Positions 24,464 through 31,400 of a stretch of DNA of 41,058 nt are shown piece after piece. Origin of the DNA: Candidatus Eiseniibacteriota bacterium (GTDB lineage: Bacteria; Eisenbacteria; RBG-16-71-46). The stretch is taken from assembly GCA_903921835.1 (NCBI GenBank), contig CAIXRL010000296.1:1-41058 (forward strand). Direction: 5' to 3'. The translations under genes and the position numbers were made by a program. The notes below the pieces were generated by a model that was not told the origin of the DNA, searched no databases, and saw only the letters and a list, made by a program, of their open reading frames with translations. Numbering within the stretch: the first letter of the stretch is position 1; every line of letters starts with the position of its first letter.

Positions 24464-25453
24464 ATGCCCATGCTCGACGTATTCAAAACCGATGCGTTCT
24501 CGGTGGTCTCCCTCACCGACGCGATCCTGAAGCGGCCCTACCGGCCGGGGCGGATCGGCTCGCTGGGGTTGTTCCGTGAACGCGGCATCACCACGACCTC
24601 GGCCGTGGTCGAACAGAAGGACGGCCAGTTGTCGCTGATCGCGACGTCCCCGCGCGGCGGCCCGGCCAGCGCCATCGGCGGCACGTCCCGCACCGCGCGC
24701 ATCTTCAAGGCGTCGCACCTCGAGCGCGAGGCGAAGGTCATGGCCGACGAGGTCCAGGGCGTGCGTGCCTTCGGGTCGGAGAACTCGACCCAGGCCGTTC
24801 AGGATCTGGTCAACGAGCGGTTGACAGACCTGCGGGCCATGCACGAGGCCACGCTGGAGTACCACCGGGCGGGGGCCATCAAGGGATTGATCCTCGACTC
24901 GAACGGCTCAACCCCGATCTATAACCTGTTCACGGAGTTCGGCATCCGACAGCAGAGTTTCGAGCTGGACCTCGCTGACGACATCCGCAATCAGAGCGTG
25001 GCGATCCAGCGCCTGAGCGAGGATGAACTCGGCGCCGACGCCGTGACCGGCTACCGCGCATTCTGCGGTGACACCTTCTTCGACGCACTGCTCGAGGCCG
25101 ATGCTGTGCAGGAGTCCCTGAAGTATCAGGCCAGCACCCTTCTTCGAGACGACGTACGGAGCGGGTTCCAGTACGGCGGCATCACCTGGGAGAACTACCG
25201 CGGCCGCGTGGGCCAGGTCGATTTCTTCCCGACCGGCGAGGCCTATGTCGTGCCGATCGGGACGTCGATCTTCGCGACGTACTTCGCGCCGGCCGACTTC
25301 ATGGAGGCCGTGAACACGCTCGGCCTGCCGCTCTACGCGAAGATGTTCTTCGACGACGACCTCGGAAGGTGGGCGGCCGTTCATACCCAGAGCAATCCTT
25401 TGGCGCTCTGTCTGCGGCCGAGGGCCGTCATCCAGGTCACGCTCGGCACGTAA
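24464..25453 (+). CDS. Major capsid protein, lambda gpE family
   Basis: 329 aa. The N-terminus MPMLDVFKTDAFSVVSLTDAILKRPYRPGRIGSLGLF is typical of gpE-family capsid proteins. The RBS is gaggag. Confidence 0.93.
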   Translation: MPMLDVFKTDAFSVVSLTDAILKRPYRPGRIGSLGLFRERGITTTSAVVEQKDGQLSLIATSPRGGPASAIGGTSRTARIFKASHLEREAKVMADEVQGVRAFGSENSTQAVQDLVNERLTDLRAMHEATLEYHRAGAIKGLILDSNGSTPIYNLFTEFGIRQQSFELDLADDIRNQSVAIQRLSEDELGADAVTGYRAFCGDTFFDALLEADAVQESLKYQASTLLRDDVRSGFQYGGITWENYRGRVGQVDFFPTGEAYVVPIGTSIFATYFAPADFMEAVNTLGLPLYAKMFFDDDLGRWAAVHTQSNPLALCLRPRAVIQVTLGT

Positions 25454-25459
25454 GGCGCC

Positions 25460-25801
25460 ATGGCTTCCGACCTACGGCCTCTGCTGGGGCCGATCTTCGA
25501 CGCGTTCGGGGTGCCGGCCACAGTGACACGGCCGGCCCCTGACGAGGAACCGATCGAGACCACCGTCGTGTGGGTCTCGGCGGCGACTGACGACGTGCCG
25601 TCTGGCGCCGAGCTCGGACGGAAAGAACCCAGGAAGGCGCTCTCGATCCGACGCGCGGACGTGCCGACACTGCCGCGCAAGACGACGATCGAGGCGCCCG
25701 AGTCGCTCGGTGGAGACGTGAAGCGCTGGCGCGTGGACAGCATTGAACGAGACGACGTCGACGAAATACGCGCGCTGGTCATTCCCGAGCCGGAACCCTG
25801 A
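25460..25801 (+). CDS. Putative head-tail connector/head-closure protein
   Basis: Called from position and size only (113 aa). Confidence 0.5.
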   Translation: MASDLRPLLGPIFDAFGVPATVTRPAPDEEPIETTVVWVSAATDDVPSGAELGRKEPRKALSIRRADVPTLPRKTTIEAPESLGGDVKRWRVDSIERDDVDEIRALVIPEPEP

Positions 25802-25805
25802 ACCC

Positions 25806-26249
25806 ATGGACCTGATCAAGACCGCCCGTACGCTGATCCTCGAAGCCGCACAGGCGCGGCTCGTGCTGATCCTGCGCGCGAGCGGCTACGCGACCGACGC
25901 GGGCCAGTGCGTCTTCGCGGGCGAGATTACCGCCATCGGTCCGGACGATCCCGAGCAGGCGATCTCGGTCGTCCTCGGCATCGACACACCTGGCCGGCCG
26001 TTGACGCAGGTACCGATCCAGATCAGCGCACTGGCCCGGGCCGACATCGACGAGCCCTGGCTGGCGGCTGAGGCCATCCTCGGCGACATCAGGACCGCGA
26101 TGGAGACGACCGACCGCACGCTCGGCGGCCTGGTCAAGACGATGGAGAAGGGATCGGTGCAGCCCTATCCACGCGAGCCAGGAAGCACGGTCGTCGGCGT
26201 GACGATCACGTATCTGGCGACCTACGTCGATTGGTGGGGGCATCTCTAA
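25806..26249 (+). CDS. Putative neck/tail-completion protein
   Basis: ATG at 25806 lies within listed ORF 25743..26249. Called from position only. Confidence 0.5.
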   Translation: MDLIKTARTLILEAAQARLVLILRASGYATDAGQCVFAGEITAIGPDDPEQAISVVLGIDTPGRPLTQVPIQISALARADIDEPWLAAEAILGDIRTAMETTDRTLGGLVKTMEKGSVQPYPREPGSTVVGVTITYLATYVDWWGHL

Positions 26250-26857
26250 TGGCCTCCCTGGCTCTCTCCTCGTCAGTGGCCCAGCGAGCCATCGAACGGC
26301 TGAAGACCTCCGCCCCGCAGGCCATCGTCCGCGCGCTGAACAAGTCGATCGCGTCGGCGAAGGTCGCCCTGGCGAAGTCGGTGAGTCAGGACACCGGCAT
26401 GAAGTCGGCCACCGTCAAGGATCGGATCGCCATCCTCCCGGCGACGGTCACTCGCCAGGCCGCGCAGTTGACCACGAGTGCCCAGCGGATCCCGCTGATC
26501 GACTGGGATGCGCGCGGGCCGTACCCGTCGAGGGGCAATGGGAAGGGCGTCAGCGTCAGCCTGCGGACGTCGGGCGTCCAGTCGATCAAGGCCAGGGGCC
26601 AGTCGCTCGGAGTCGGAGGATCGACCGGTGGAGGCCGTGGGCGCTACCCGACTGCCTTCATCGCCATCATGAAGAGCGGCCACCGCGGGGTGTTCTCGCG
26701 TGCCGGCACGAAGCGGACGCCCATCTACCAGATGTACGGTCCCTCGCTCGCGCGCGTGTCCGACCGGTTCTCGGCCGTGGCCGCGGCGCGCGGCATGGAG
26801 CAGCTCCGCAAGAACCTCGCCTCTGAGTTTCGATACGTCATGCGCACCGGCGCGTAA
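26249..26857 (+). CDS. Putative tail-completion protein (gpZ-like)
   Basis: TAATG junction at the start. AIVRALNKS...AFIAIMKSGHRGVFSR...PIYQMYGPS resembles minor tail protein Z-type sequences. This is a motif-level call. Confidence 0.55.
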   Translation: MASLALSSSVAQRAIERLKTSAPQAIVRALNKSIASAKVALAKSVSQDTGMKSATVKDRIAILPATVTRQAAQLTTSAQRIPLIDWDARGPYPSRGNGKGVSVSLRTSGVQSIKARGQSLGVGGSTGGGRGRYPTAFIAIMKSGHRGVFSRAGTKRTPIYQMYGPSLARVSDRFSAVAAARGMEQLRKNLASEFRYVMRTGA

Positions 26858-26874: not shown

Positions 26875-27486
26875 ATGGACAACAATTCCGTTCCGTTCGA
26901 AATCGTCGCCACCGGCGAGGTGGATCTCTACCTGGCGCCGGTGAGCACCCCGTTTCCGACCACGCCGTCCGAGACGCCCCCGGCGCCGTGGGCGCTGATC
27001 GGCAAGAGCGGCGGGCAGAACTACGACCCGGCCGGCATCACGATCGCCTTGGCGCAGAGCACGACCGAGCTGCGCGGCCTCAAGGACGTCGAGACGCGCA
27101 AGGTCATCCGCACGTCGGCCTCGAAGAAGCTGTCCGGCAACGTCTTCGACATCACGGCCGAGACGATGGCTCTCGCGCTCAACGGCAACGCCATCGTCGA
27201 GACGCCTGGCGGCGCAGATAAGGGCTTCCAGACCATCGGGCTGTCGCTCGGGTCGATGGTGACCACCTACGCGCTCCTGATGCGCAGCGTCTCGCCGTAT
27301 CTCGCGGACGGCGCGAGCCAGTGGTGCTTCCCGATCGTCGTGCAGTCGGGCAGCCCCTCGGTCGTCTACAGCAACAACGGCGCGGCGGGCCTGGCGCTCG
27401 AATTCACCGCCCTGGTCGACACGACCCAGGCGGCCGCCAAGCGCTCGGGCTGGTACGAAGCCGAGCACGAGGATGCTTCCAGCTAA
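26875..27486 (+). CDS. Major tail (tube) protein
   Basis: The RBS is aggagag. The gene is 203 aa and lies directly upstream of the chaperone pair and the tape measure gene. Confidence 0.7.
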   Translation: MDNNSVPFEIVATGEVDLYLAPVSTPFPTTPSETPPAPWALIGKSGGQNYDPAGITIALAQSTTELRGLKDVETRKVIRTSASKKLSGNVFDITAETMALALNGNAIVETPGGADKGFQTIGLSLGSMVTTYALLMRSVSPYLADGASQWCFPIVVQSGSPSVVYSNNGAAGLALEFTALVDTTQAAAKRSGWYEAEHEDASS

Positions 27487-27703
27487 CCTGGCCGAACGGT
27501 GCGCGGCCTTGCGCGTCGAAGTGAAGATGCACAAGGCCGCCATCGCTCGGCATCGTCGCCAGCTCGGGACCGCGAAGGCCGCCCTGGTGGAGGTAGAGGC
27601 CAGATGTTTGCGCCTCGGCCTCACCGTCGAACTGATCGAACGCGCCCCCAATTCGTTTACCGACCTTCACAGGTCCAGCGAAGGAACAGGATTCCATGGC
27701 TGA
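27473..27703 (+). CDS. Hypothetical small coiled-coil protein (76 aa)
   Basis: It overlaps both neighbours by 8-14 nt and has moderately high third-position GC. No motif recognised. Confidence 0.35.
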   Translation: MLPANLAERCAALRVEVKMHKAAIARHRRQLGTAKAALVEVEARCLRLGLTVELIERAPNSFTDLHRSSEGTGFHG

Positions 27704-28100
27704 ACAGACACCGCCTGCGCCGACACCCCTCCTTGATCTGGACACCCTCGCGGAGCGTCCGTTCGTGCTGATCGACCAGGTCAAGTACGAACTCCGCACA
27801 CCAGAGGAGGTCTCCGTTCTGGAGCATCGCCGCCTCGGCAAGCTCGGCGCCAGGCTGGACGCGATCGAAAAGACCGAAGACCCCAGCGAGGAGGAGGAGC
27901 AGGAATACGAACAGTTGCTCAAGACGCTGAGCGGACGAGTCCTCCTGGCCCCAGACGAGGTGAAGGCGCGGTTGAACAGTTCCCAGCGGGTCGCGGTGGC
28001 CGTGGCTTTTACGAGGCTCCGGCAGACGAGCAGACCCTCTCTGGCCGGAGCGAAGACCAAGGCGCCAGCGGAGAAGGTTCGAAGCCGACGCAAGGCGTGA
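27696..28100 (+). CDS. Tail assembly chaperone (gpG-like)
   Basis: It has an acidic central stretch (EDPSEEEEQEYEQ) and lies immediately upstream of the tape measure gene. The -1 frame is open across its 3' end. Confidence 0.6.
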   Translation: MAEQTPPAPTPLLDLDTLAERPFVLIDQVKYELRTPEEVSVLEHRRLGKLGARLDAIEKTEDPSEEEEQEYEQLLKTLSGRVLLAPDEVKARLNSSQRVAVAVAFTRLRQTSRPSLAGAKTKAPAEKVRSRRKA

Positions 28101-28456
28101 GACGAGACGACTGGGGCGAGTTGATTCCGCGCCTCGTCGCCAGATATGGGGGCGACGCGATGACCTGGCTCGATCGAACCCCGCGCGCCATCGTCCGAGC
28201 CTGCCTCCTGATGTTGCCGCGGCTCCAGGCGGAGGAATCATTACTGACATCGCAGCGGATCGCCGTGGGAACCGGGTCCATGAAATCAGCCGACAGTCGG
28301 CAGATCACGAGTGGCTGGATCAGGGCGATGCGTAACCAAGGAACATCGATGGCGCCAGGCCCCTCGTCGAAAGCGTCCATCCGCGCGTTTTGCGCGAATG
28401 GTGGCATGGGGTACGTCAGAACGCCGAAACCGTCACGGGTCGATACGCAGCCATGA
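28097..28456 (+). CDS. gpT-like ORF, probably expressed as a G-T fusion by -1 frameshifting
   Basis: It is in the -1 frame relative to 27696..28100. That frame is open for more than 200 nt upstream of the nominal GTG at 28097. The stop overlaps the tape-measure ATG (ATGA). Confidence 0.5.
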   Translation: MRRDDWGELIPRLVARYGGDAMTWLDRTPRAIVRACLLMLPRLQAEESLLTSQRIAVGTGSMKSADSRQITSGWIRAMRNQGTSMAPGPSSKASIRAFCANGGMGYVRTPKPSRVDTQP

Positions 28457-31400
28457 GCCCGATCTCCCTCGAACGCGCGGTCCTCGAACTGGCGACCGAC
28501 TCCGCCAAGTTCAACACTGAACTGGATAAGGCGAAGCAGCGCGTCGCGGACCTCGAGGGGAAGTTCGCCTCGGCTAGCCAGCGCGCCGAGGGATTCGGCT
28601 CCGTCATCAAAACGGCGGCGGGCACGTTCAGTGGCTTCCTCGGGGCGCAAGCGGTTCTTTCTGGCGTCGGCTCCGCGTTCAGCGCGATCGGATCGGCGGC
28701 CATCACGATGAACAGTAATCTGGGGCGATCCACGTTGCAGTTCACGACGCTGATGGGCAGTTCGGACCAAGCAAAGAGCCAAGTCAAGGACCTCTTCGAG
28801 ATCGACAAGAAGACCCCGTTTGAAACTGGTCCCATCATCGAAGCCTCGAAGGCGCTCCAGACATTCGGCGGCAGCGCGCTCAATACCAAGGAGAACATCA
28901 TCGAGATCGGTGACGCCGCCGCCGCGACGGGCGCGCCGATCAATGAACTGGGCTTCTGGACAGGACGCCTCTACAGCGCGCTCAAGAGCGGGCAACCGTT
29001 CGGTGAAGCGGCCATGAGAATGCAGGAGCTGGGTGTCATGTCGCCCCAGGTCCGGCAGCAAATGGAGGCGATGCAGAAGGCTGGCAAGTCGGCTGATGAA
29101 ATCTTTGCGGTGTTCTCGAAAGACCTCGAGAAGTTCTCTGGTGCGATGGAGGTGCAGGCCCGAACCTGGGAAGGCGCGACGTCCACGTTTAGCGACTCCG
29201 CCAACATGATGGCGGCTGAGGCGTTCAAGCCGCTCTTTGAGGTGCTCAAGGACAGCCTCAACGAGATCAACGACTGGCTGGGGTCTGACCAGGCGCAGGG
29301 CCTGATCACGTGGTTCGCCGAGACCGTCGGCGGGGCGGTGGACAAGGCGAATGGCGCGTTGTCGGGCTTCGGGGACTGGCTGAAAGAGAACGACGTCCCG
29401 AACACGCTCGTCGCCTCCTGGACGTTGGCCGCAGAGGGCATAAAGGGGCCGACGGCGTCGATCGTCGCAGACATCAACGCGATGTGGGTGGCGATGTCGA
29501 GGCAACTGGGGGAGAAAGGCAACCTTGGGATTGCGGACGCACTGAAGGCGGCGCTGCTCGACTGGGTCGGTCAGCAGGCCGCGGCCGTCACGTTGATCTC
29601 TGACAACGTCAACGACTTCAGGGCAAGGCAGCTCGGGAGCAACACGCCCAATATTCCCGGCGCGCCGTCCCTCTTCGTGCCACAGGGTGGCTTGCAGATC
29701 CCAACCTCTCCGATCGGCGCAGACCTGATCAACGGGGAGGGATTTGGAACGGCGACAAAGACCGCGCTGACCACGGGTCAGAAGTCAGCGGAGGATGCCC
29801 ACAAGAAAGCGATCGACGAACTCGCGCACGCGACCGACACGCTCACGGAAGCCCAGCAGGCGCAGATCCTCTCCGATCTGGCGCTCGGTCTGAGCGAGTC
29901 GCAAATCGCTGACGCCATCAAACTGCACGACAGCACAGTCAAGCACTTCATCGAGACGGTGAAGGAGCGGAAGAAGGCCGAAGACGAACAGCAGAAGGAC
30001 AGCGTCGCCTGGAACGAGGCCTACATCGAGACCGTGGCGCACATCCACGACTCCCAGGCGAAGTATCTCCGAGAACTTGCGGCAGACCGAGTGAAGGCGG
30101 CCGAGTCCATCAAGAACGCGACGGACAAAACCAACCTCGACCAACTCACGGCGGTGAATCATTTCGCGGCCGAGTTGGAAAAGTCGTCGATGAGTACGAC
30201 GAACTACCAGATCCTCCAGAACACGCGGGCGCATGACTCGGCGATCCGCGACCTCCGAGACGTGACGAATCTCTCGAAGCCGGAGTTTGACCGACGCAAG
30301 AAGATCCTCGACGACTACTTCGCTCACGAAGGCAAGCTGATCACGGACAGTCACAAAGACTGGGTGGACGCCTTGTCGGGATTGGGCAACAGCTTCCGGC
30401 TGCTCGCCCAGTCGGCCGGCGAGGGCGGCCTGGGGTCAGTCGCGCAGGCGTTGGCGAACATCGTCGGCGGCATGGAGTTGGCGACGACGGCCGGCATCAA
30501 CTTCAAGAAGGCGCTCGATACCAAAGATACGGAAGTCAAGGTCGTGGGTGTGGCGGGCGCCGTCATCCAATTAGCCGCGGCGATGTCTCAGGCCACGAAC
30601 AACACGAACAAGCTCCAGGCGGCGCTGGGCGGCGCGGCGACTGGCTATGCTGCCGGCATCGGGGCGGGCCTCTCAAAGGCCTCGTCCGGCATCGTCGGTG
30701 CGATGCTGGCGATCAAGTCGTATTTCGATGCCTACGAGGCCCAAGGTGAGCAGGCGCGCCAGACCGCCGAGAGCATTCGGAAGGCCTGGCAATTGCTCAC
30801 TGGTGACCTGAGTAATCTTACTGCGGGAGCTGGCGGCGGCGCGATTCAGGGGCTCGATCTACTGGGCTCGACTGTCGGGAAGGGCGCACAGGACCTCATC
30901 GACAAGTTGACGCGGGCTGGGAGCGCCTGGGCCGACAAAATCATAGACCTTCAGTCGAAGATCAATCTCGGCACGATCAGCCTGGACGATTACAAGTTCG
31001 CGGTCGCCCAGATCAACGCGGAACTCGACAAGTTTCAGGCACAGCTCGATGGCGTGGGCATCGCCATCCAAGGCGTGGACGCCCGAAGCGCGGCCTTCGT
31101 CTCGCCGTTCCAGAAGAGCCTCGACGACATCGCTGACCTTCGGAAGCAATTGGCGGAATTGCCGACCGACATTGAAGGGCTGGCAGCGGCGGACGCCCTC
31201 ACCAAGCAACTGACCCAGAAGTCCGACGCGTTGAAGGACTGGGCGGCGCACGCGCAGCCCGAGTTCGATCGGCTGAGCGTCTACATCGCGGGGGCGCTGG
31301 GAGCCGGCATCGCGAAGGGCCTCTCGCCGATAGAGCTGATGAAGCAGCTCAAGCCGGCGTTTGACGCGCTGAAAACGGGCACGGGCGAGATGGGCCTGTC

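Follow-up and report, generated by a model that had tools for sequence, protein, structure and literature searches.

The G and T reading frames and their relatives

The analysed DNA, referred to here as the window, is a stretch of 41,058 nucleotides that makes up an entire 41-kb contig from a metagenome-assembled genome and has a GC content of 67%. A search for a terminal repeat of the contig found none. Pfam and PHROG matches define a lambda-like gene order that runs from capsid E through genes for an FII-like head-tail attachment protein, a Z-like tail completion protein and the major tail protein to G, T and the tape measure gene (Table 1). Two small ORFs lie between the major tail and tape measure genes, and this order is the same in the relatives. 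The start of the second ORF (28097-28456) has a remainder of 2 on division by three and the start of the first (27696-28100) has a remainder of 0, which places the second in the −1 frame of the first, as the initial annotation had proposed. No stop interrupts the −1 frame between 27737 and the TGA at 28454-28456, a longer extent than the limit of at least about 27860 given in that annotation. The window and all 42 distinct loci share this −1 placement of T relative to G; an apparently different frame in relative L011 is an artefact of choosing the longest ORF. The tape measure ATG overlaps the T stop in the sequence ATGA.

Table 1. Coordinates of the features at the G/T locus of the window and of the corresponding loci in relatives.
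Feature	Coordinates	Strand	Remarks
Major capsid protein E	24464-25453		lambda-like neighbour
Major tail protein gene	26875-27486	+	phrog_117, E = 5e-8; position kept in all relatives
G, tail assembly chaperone (probable), zero frame, 134 aa	27696-28100	+	from the ORF list; ATG start
Slip site G_GCU_UUU (putative)	28004-28010	+	essential tetramer U_UUU 28007-28010; Phe-105 codon 28008-28010
Linker of the predicted GT product, −1 frame (YEAPADEQ...GVRRD)	28010-28108	+	overlaps the zero-frame G tail; 17-65 codons among relatives
Spacer ACGAG, 5 nt	28011-28015	+	first stem pair 5-6 nt past the Phe codon in folds of the window and relatives
Stimulatory hairpin (proposed)	28016-28051	+	5′ arm 28016-28026, loop 28027-28040, 3′ arm 28041-28051
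GTG overlapping the G stop (GTGA)	28097-28099	+	possible separate T start, in this genome only
T domain, −1 frame	28109-28456	+	stop TGA 28454-28456; opens with conserved DWGELIPRLVxxYGG
Tape measure protein gene, 1317 aa	28453-32406	+	PF20155 TMP_3; phrog_973, E = 5.8e-13
Heptamer locus, relative L004	3311-3318
Heptamer locus, relative L007	1401-1407
Heptamer locus, relative L028	1432-1437
Heptamer locus, relative L039	1411-1416
Isolated phage Aussie (L056)	OR786373 26049-26740
Isolated phage StopSmel (L058)	OR786374 24089-24786
Isolated phage Mwe-Yong1112-1 (L057)	MZ436628 13003-13691

The module holds two further genes. The 168-aa protein encoded at 25743-26249 has weak tail-terminator PHROG matches and sits before the Z-like protein (26231-26857), whereas lambda has Z and then U between FII and the major tail gene. 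The apparent gap of about 190 nt that separates G from the major tail gene is in fact coding: a small ORF on the forward strand (27473-27703, ATG at 27473) encodes 76 aa with the motif ...HKAAIxRHRxQLGxAxAALxxLEAECxRLGIxL..., and its stop overlaps the G start (ATGGCTGA). This ORF looks helical, has no PHROG match and is kept in L002, L004, L005, L007, L033, StopSmel and Mwe-Yong1112-1; where source records give gene calls for that gap, the ORF is not among them.

Within the host lineage, none of the 60 closest genomes contains a G homologue, and relatives were therefore drawn from viral contigs and metagenomes. With G as the query, a word-indexed search turned up only six relatives, whose contigs were then taken, and a profile of the T domain (alignment A1) added 25 viral, 7 genomic and 17 metagenomic loci. 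The genomic loci include Hyphomicrobiales, Devosia, Erythrobacter and Porphyrobacter. Removal of duplicates left 42 distinct loci. A profile of G matches 2515 cluster representatives at E ≤ 0.001 among 1.84 billion proteins. Three isolated phages are in the sample, the Sinorhizobium phages Aussie and StopSmel and the Microcystis phage Mwe-Yong1112-1. In all three the G and T families are the same, and a GTT TTT ACC slip site is separated by 5 nt from a hairpin with a folding energy of −20 to −28 kcal/mol; their protein identity to the window is 30-47%. Their records list both ORFs as "hypothetical protein" and give no join.

G was modelled with AlphaFold2 using 37 relatives, and the model, with a mean pLDDT of 79.6, is confident over residues 20-112, which form a folded core of a β-hairpin followed by four helices. 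The best match to the model in BFVD is A0A6J5R1M6, annotated "Tail assembly chaperone" (E = 1.3e-5, TM 0.62/0.70), and further, weaker BFVD matches also carry chaperone annotations. G thus has a chaperone-like fold as judged from predicted structures and from the annotation of these matches; a Foldseek search of the PDB with the same model gave no significant match. The T domain is modelled as a helical bundle (pLDDT 77.9) with no significant structural match in a Foldseek search of BFVD. No Pfam, PHROG or NCBIfam model covers either protein: Pfam has no match for the window proteins, 37 G relatives or 36 T relatives, the PHROG chaperone families have none for window G and T or the 37 G relatives, and NCBIfam has none for window G or T. 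PDB sequences contain no match to G or T, and hhalign comparison with lambda G and lambda T gives probabilities below 1%.

Residues 115-134 of G are predicted to be a disordered tail. The zero-frame sequence past Phe-105 (28011-28097 and its counterparts) is basic, is predicted to be disordered and shows no conservation of its own, and its length ranges from 29 to about 70 residues among the window and relatives. The only nearly invariant stretch in this tail, T-G-A, arises where the DNA encoding the T motif DWG is read in the other frame.

A conserved candidate slip site and its downstream hairpin

The zero-frame reading at the run of four T residues is GCT TTT ACG, and the run lies 88-91 nt before the G stop (28098-28100), in agreement with the approximately 90 nt of the initial annotation, which had named this run as the likeliest slip site. 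The comparison bears out that choice. Each of the 42 distinct loci has exactly one in-phase U_UUY. It coincides with the conserved Phe at the end of the G core and precedes the DWG motif by 51-195 nt. The slippery sequence is thus conserved in phase within the overlap of the two frames. The window has the tetramer form and not the classical heptamer; its G gene contains no canonical X_XXY_YYZ heptamer. Canonical heptamers do occur at the same place and in the right phase in four lineages, as T_TTT_TTT in L004/L008 and as T_TTT_TTC in L007, L028 and L039.

Codon usage at the site departs from that of the surrounding genes. The codon before the Phe ends in T at all 42 loci, compared with a third-position T frequency of 10% elsewhere in these genes, and this holds for codons for Ala, Val, Leu, Thr, Ser, Cys and Phe (GCT, GTT, CTT, ACT, AGT, TGT or TTT). 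The Phe codon itself is TTT at 35 of the 42 loci, whereas 16 of 163 Phe codons elsewhere are TTT. tRNA-Phe decodes UUU and UUC alike. A single sequence would be only suggestive, because T_TTY occurs in phase five times in the 2298 codons of the window structural genes, the G site being the only T_TTT among them. It is the conservation across the 42 relatives that makes the case, at the level of sequence comparison, that the T run is non-random. The base before the P-site codon equals the first base of that codon at 35 of 42 loci, so first-position pairing would be kept on slipping; this match is given little weight because it is near expectation in GC-rich DNA.

The initial annotation had suggested that RNA folding be used to look for a stem-loop or pseudoknot downstream of the run. 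A stem-loop is present. The first six sequences each fold, at minimum free energy (MFE), to a hairpin that begins 5-6 nt past the Phe codon, and so do most of the 42 loci; the stems of the divergent groups differ widely in sequence. The MFE of the 50 nt downstream of the site averages −23.3 kcal/mol, whereas 2299 control windows taken from these loci average −15.8 kcal/mol (Mann-Whitney p = 3e-17, a value that overstates the case since the sequences are related and not independent). A pseudoknot is unsupported: when the hairpin loop was tested for base pairing to 35 nt of downstream sequence, the z score relative to shuffled sequences averaged only −0.6.

A MAFFT alignment of all 39 slip regions misaligned the divergent group. 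The covariation count was therefore confined to the 21 sequences with a gap-free alignment, and each of the others was assessed from its own fold. Among the 21 aligned sequences, 85.7% of the cells of the 11-bp stem (28016-28026 with 28041-28051) pair and compensatory changes on both sides are present at 8 of the 11 stem pairs. None of 500 shuffles reached the observed stem values, and sliding the partner by 1-3 columns lowers pairing to 29-51%. A covariance model built from the aligned sequences finds this place as its sole match at E < 0.1 in the 41-kb window, with a strong score, and recovers the predicted site in the left-out sequences of Aussie, StopSmel, Mwe-Yong1112-1, L012 and L018. 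Rfam has no matching family in 27600-28500. Because two frames are coding across the stem, protein constraint could account for some of its conservation, and the relatives share phylogeny; the compensatory changes are the part of the sequence evidence that argues for an RNA structure.

Hairpins in the lineages with heptamers (L004, L007, L028 and L039) are weaker or displaced, with MFE values of −15 to −26 kcal/mol, and the main helix of L028 and L039 begins 14-16 nt downstream. With four lineages, a trade-off between the strength of the slip site and that of the stimulator is suggestive at most.

Routes to the T domain

The T domain starts with the nearly invariant sequence DWGELIPRLVxxYGG, in which D1, W2, G3, L5, P7 and R8 are nearly invariant in alignments A1 and A5. 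The very unlikely alternative to frameshifting is that T is translated independently, either from the GTG at 28097 by termination-reinitiation at GTGA or from an internal ATG at 28157 (Met-17 of the T domain), the upstream −1 frame being merely an open GC-rich off-frame. The overlap of the GTG with the G stop would suit such a start, long open off-frames are common at 67% GC, and the gene callers of the source records begin T at the internal Met, which lies behind a GGAGG-like string of YGG codons. That start is 17 codons into the domain and would discard its best-conserved part. In 33 of 39 relatives there is no ATG, GTG or TTG in the T frame between the T run and the DWG motif, and at 38 of 39 loci the G stop is downstream of this motif, which is thereby buried inside the G ORF. 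The single exception is the window, where the G stop (28098) precedes the motif (28109). T could thus also be made separately from the GTG in this genome, but on these sequence comparisons the GTG cannot be the family's route to T expression, because those 33 relatives lack a T-frame start ahead of the motif. Independent translation also leaves unexplained the invariant wobble T, the preference for TTT and the covarying hairpin. The best 150 of the 2515 representatives of the G family are 124-182 aa long, and therefore none of them is an in-frame G-T fusion.

A −1 frameshift at another position is more improbable still. It would occur either at the run of A residues at 27868-27871 (AAAA, zero-frame GAA AAG) or at an unrecognised site within 28011-28097. 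The A run was considered a weaker alternative in the initial annotation, and the comparison agrees. Its appeal is that A_AAG is the most shift-prone tetramer in Escherichia coli (PMC4066793) and that the −1 frame is open from 27737. The run is found in the window only, however, and −1 stops lie between its equivalent position and the T run in relatives L038, L006, L016, L033 and L025 (2, 30, 35, 38 and 39 nt upstream of the T run, respectively), which excludes it as the slip site. In L038 the −1 frame has a TGA one codon before the T run, and in L006 the stop is 10 codons before. Translation in the −1 frame from 27870 gives the Arg/Gly-rich off-frame sequence that had been described for it and would exchange half of the conserved G core for that sequence. 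Downstream of the T run there is no other in-phase Z_ZZN tetramer in the window between 28011 and the G stop, and none is common to the relatives.

Transcriptional slippage, in which RNA polymerase adds one U on the T run and the altered mRNAs are read normally into the T frame, is scarcely credible: one added U gives the same frame and runs of 6-8 T are present in L004, L007, L018, L028, L039 and L041, but in the window and in most relatives the run is no longer than 4-5 T, which falls short of the slippage tracts cited in the literature (T5C5, U6 and homopolymeric heptamers; PMC5009743, PMC4066793), the strict codon phase at 42 of 42 loci matters to ribosomes and not to RNA polymerase, and a hairpin at 5-nt spacing is a classical ribosomal stimulator.

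The reading favored here is that a lambda-like siphophage encodes its G/GT tail assembly chaperone pair in G and the −1 ORF that stops at 28456, and expresses the pair by −1 frameshifting at U_UUU; the estimated probability is roughly 0.88 on the sequence evidence. The G/G-T arrangement of long-tailed phages assumed by the initial annotation is borne out by the lambda-like gene order and by the chaperone matches of the G model. Most ribosomes would read G through to its stop and produce the 134-aa protein of 15.0 kDa. A small fraction would slip back one base, with tRNA-Phe leaving UUU at 28008-28010 and re-pairing on UUU at 28007-28009, and the hairpin 5 nt downstream would stimulate the slip. 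A 5-nt spacer suggests an A-site position for the UUU codon at the moment of contact between ribosome and stem. In this case the P-site tRNA-Ala would re-pair poorly, moving from GCU to GGC with a mispair at the middle position. The next codon after the slip would be UAC (Tyr, 28010-28012), and translation would continue in the −1 frame to 28453; the product would be the same whichever tRNA slips.

The predicted GT product has 253 aa (about 27.8 kDa) and would consist of G residues 1-105, an acidic linker of 33 aa and the 115-aa T domain. At the predicted junction ...VAVAF is followed directly by YEAPAD..., and the corresponding junction peptide is VAVAVAFYEAPADEQTLSGR. By analogy with lambda, the G part would bind the tape measure protein and the T part would recruit the major tail protein. 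A weak tetramer would give the low GT:G ratio needed in tail assembly. The run of four U residues alone is a weak signal. The tetranucleotide is the minimal −1 site (PMC5009743), and Z_ZZN tetramers alone are barely shifty in E. coli, where those with a 3′ structure give 0.26-5.6% frameshifting and rank in the order A_AAG >> U_UUC > U_UUU (PMC4066793). In lambda, G outnumbers GT by about 30:1 (PMC5009743), and a percent-level efficiency would suit a chaperone pair with such a counterpart.

Comparison with known frameshifting systems

The proposed mechanism is an ordinary one, since both the G/GT kind of gene pair and the tetramer type of signal have long been known, and the finding leaves the understanding of phage tail assembly and of frameshifting unchanged. 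The conserved frameshift in the tail chaperone genes of long-tailed phages is reviewed in PMC5009743, and the data set of Xu et al. is described in PMC10885494. What is new, as far as sequences can define it, is a large unnamed chaperone family, mostly from alphaproteobacterial phages, with an unannotated frameshift and a signal defined by comparison. The annotation of the whole family would be corrected: the three isolated phages list its members as "hypothetical protein", and metagenomic records either leave them uncalled or give them a wrong start. This is a comparatively supported candidate for a tail chaperone frameshift with a four-base slip site plus a hairpin, which would explain why such genes in GC-rich phages are missed by heptamer-based predictors. 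The precise junction peptide and the small RNA element named here are both testable. A broader proposal is doubtful at present: across this very large unnamed family of GC-rich, mostly alphaproteobacterial siphophages (2515 representatives), the GT:G ratio may be set by a minimal U_UUY plus hairpin instead of a heptamer, with slip site and hairpin strength trading off against each other. If the trade-off is true, the family would be a natural titration series for the tuning of −1 frameshift efficiency.

Some of the slip-site sequences resemble motif classes of the PRFect program. The PRFect authors put forward the "twoonefour", "twofive" and "five" classes as hypotheses drawn from actinophage annotations, and these had neither comparative nor structural support. 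GGCTTTT, GGTTTTT/CCTTTTT and TGTTTTT appear to fall in these classes when judged by motif name alone (PMC10885494). Unlike the classes as set out there, the shared element here is U_UUY plus a hairpin, in a mostly alphaproteobacterial phage family.

The closest parallel to the signal itself is in the insertion sequences. IS1 and IS3 elements use Z_ZZN motifs of this kind, and U_UUY is among the three most shift-prone tetramers (PMC4066793); the IS1222 signal is G_CGA_AAG (PMC5009743). As in those systems, the site here would need a stem-loop or pseudoknot a few nucleotides downstream, and a low, percent-level efficiency is expected. Unlike in IS1 and IS3, the genes are phage tail chaperones and not a transposase, and the stimulator, which belongs to no Rfam family, looks like a simple hairpin.

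The closest parallel to the gene pair is lambda gpG/gpGT. In both cases two overlapping ORFs lie between the major tail and tape measure genes, the second ORF is in the −1 frame with no start of its own (the window itself has the GTG at 28097), and the stop of the second ORF abuts the tape measure start. The fusion product, predicted here, shares the N-terminal chaperone domain in the same way. The two systems differ in that the proteins have no detectable sequence similarity to lambda G or T and in that the slip site is a U_UUU tetramer, unlike the G_GGA_AAG of lambda. The slip site is also 30 codons before the G stop in the window and up to about 70 codons before it in relatives, compared with a few codons in lambda, and, again unlike lambda, it is followed by a conserved 3′ hairpin on which the site is taken to depend.
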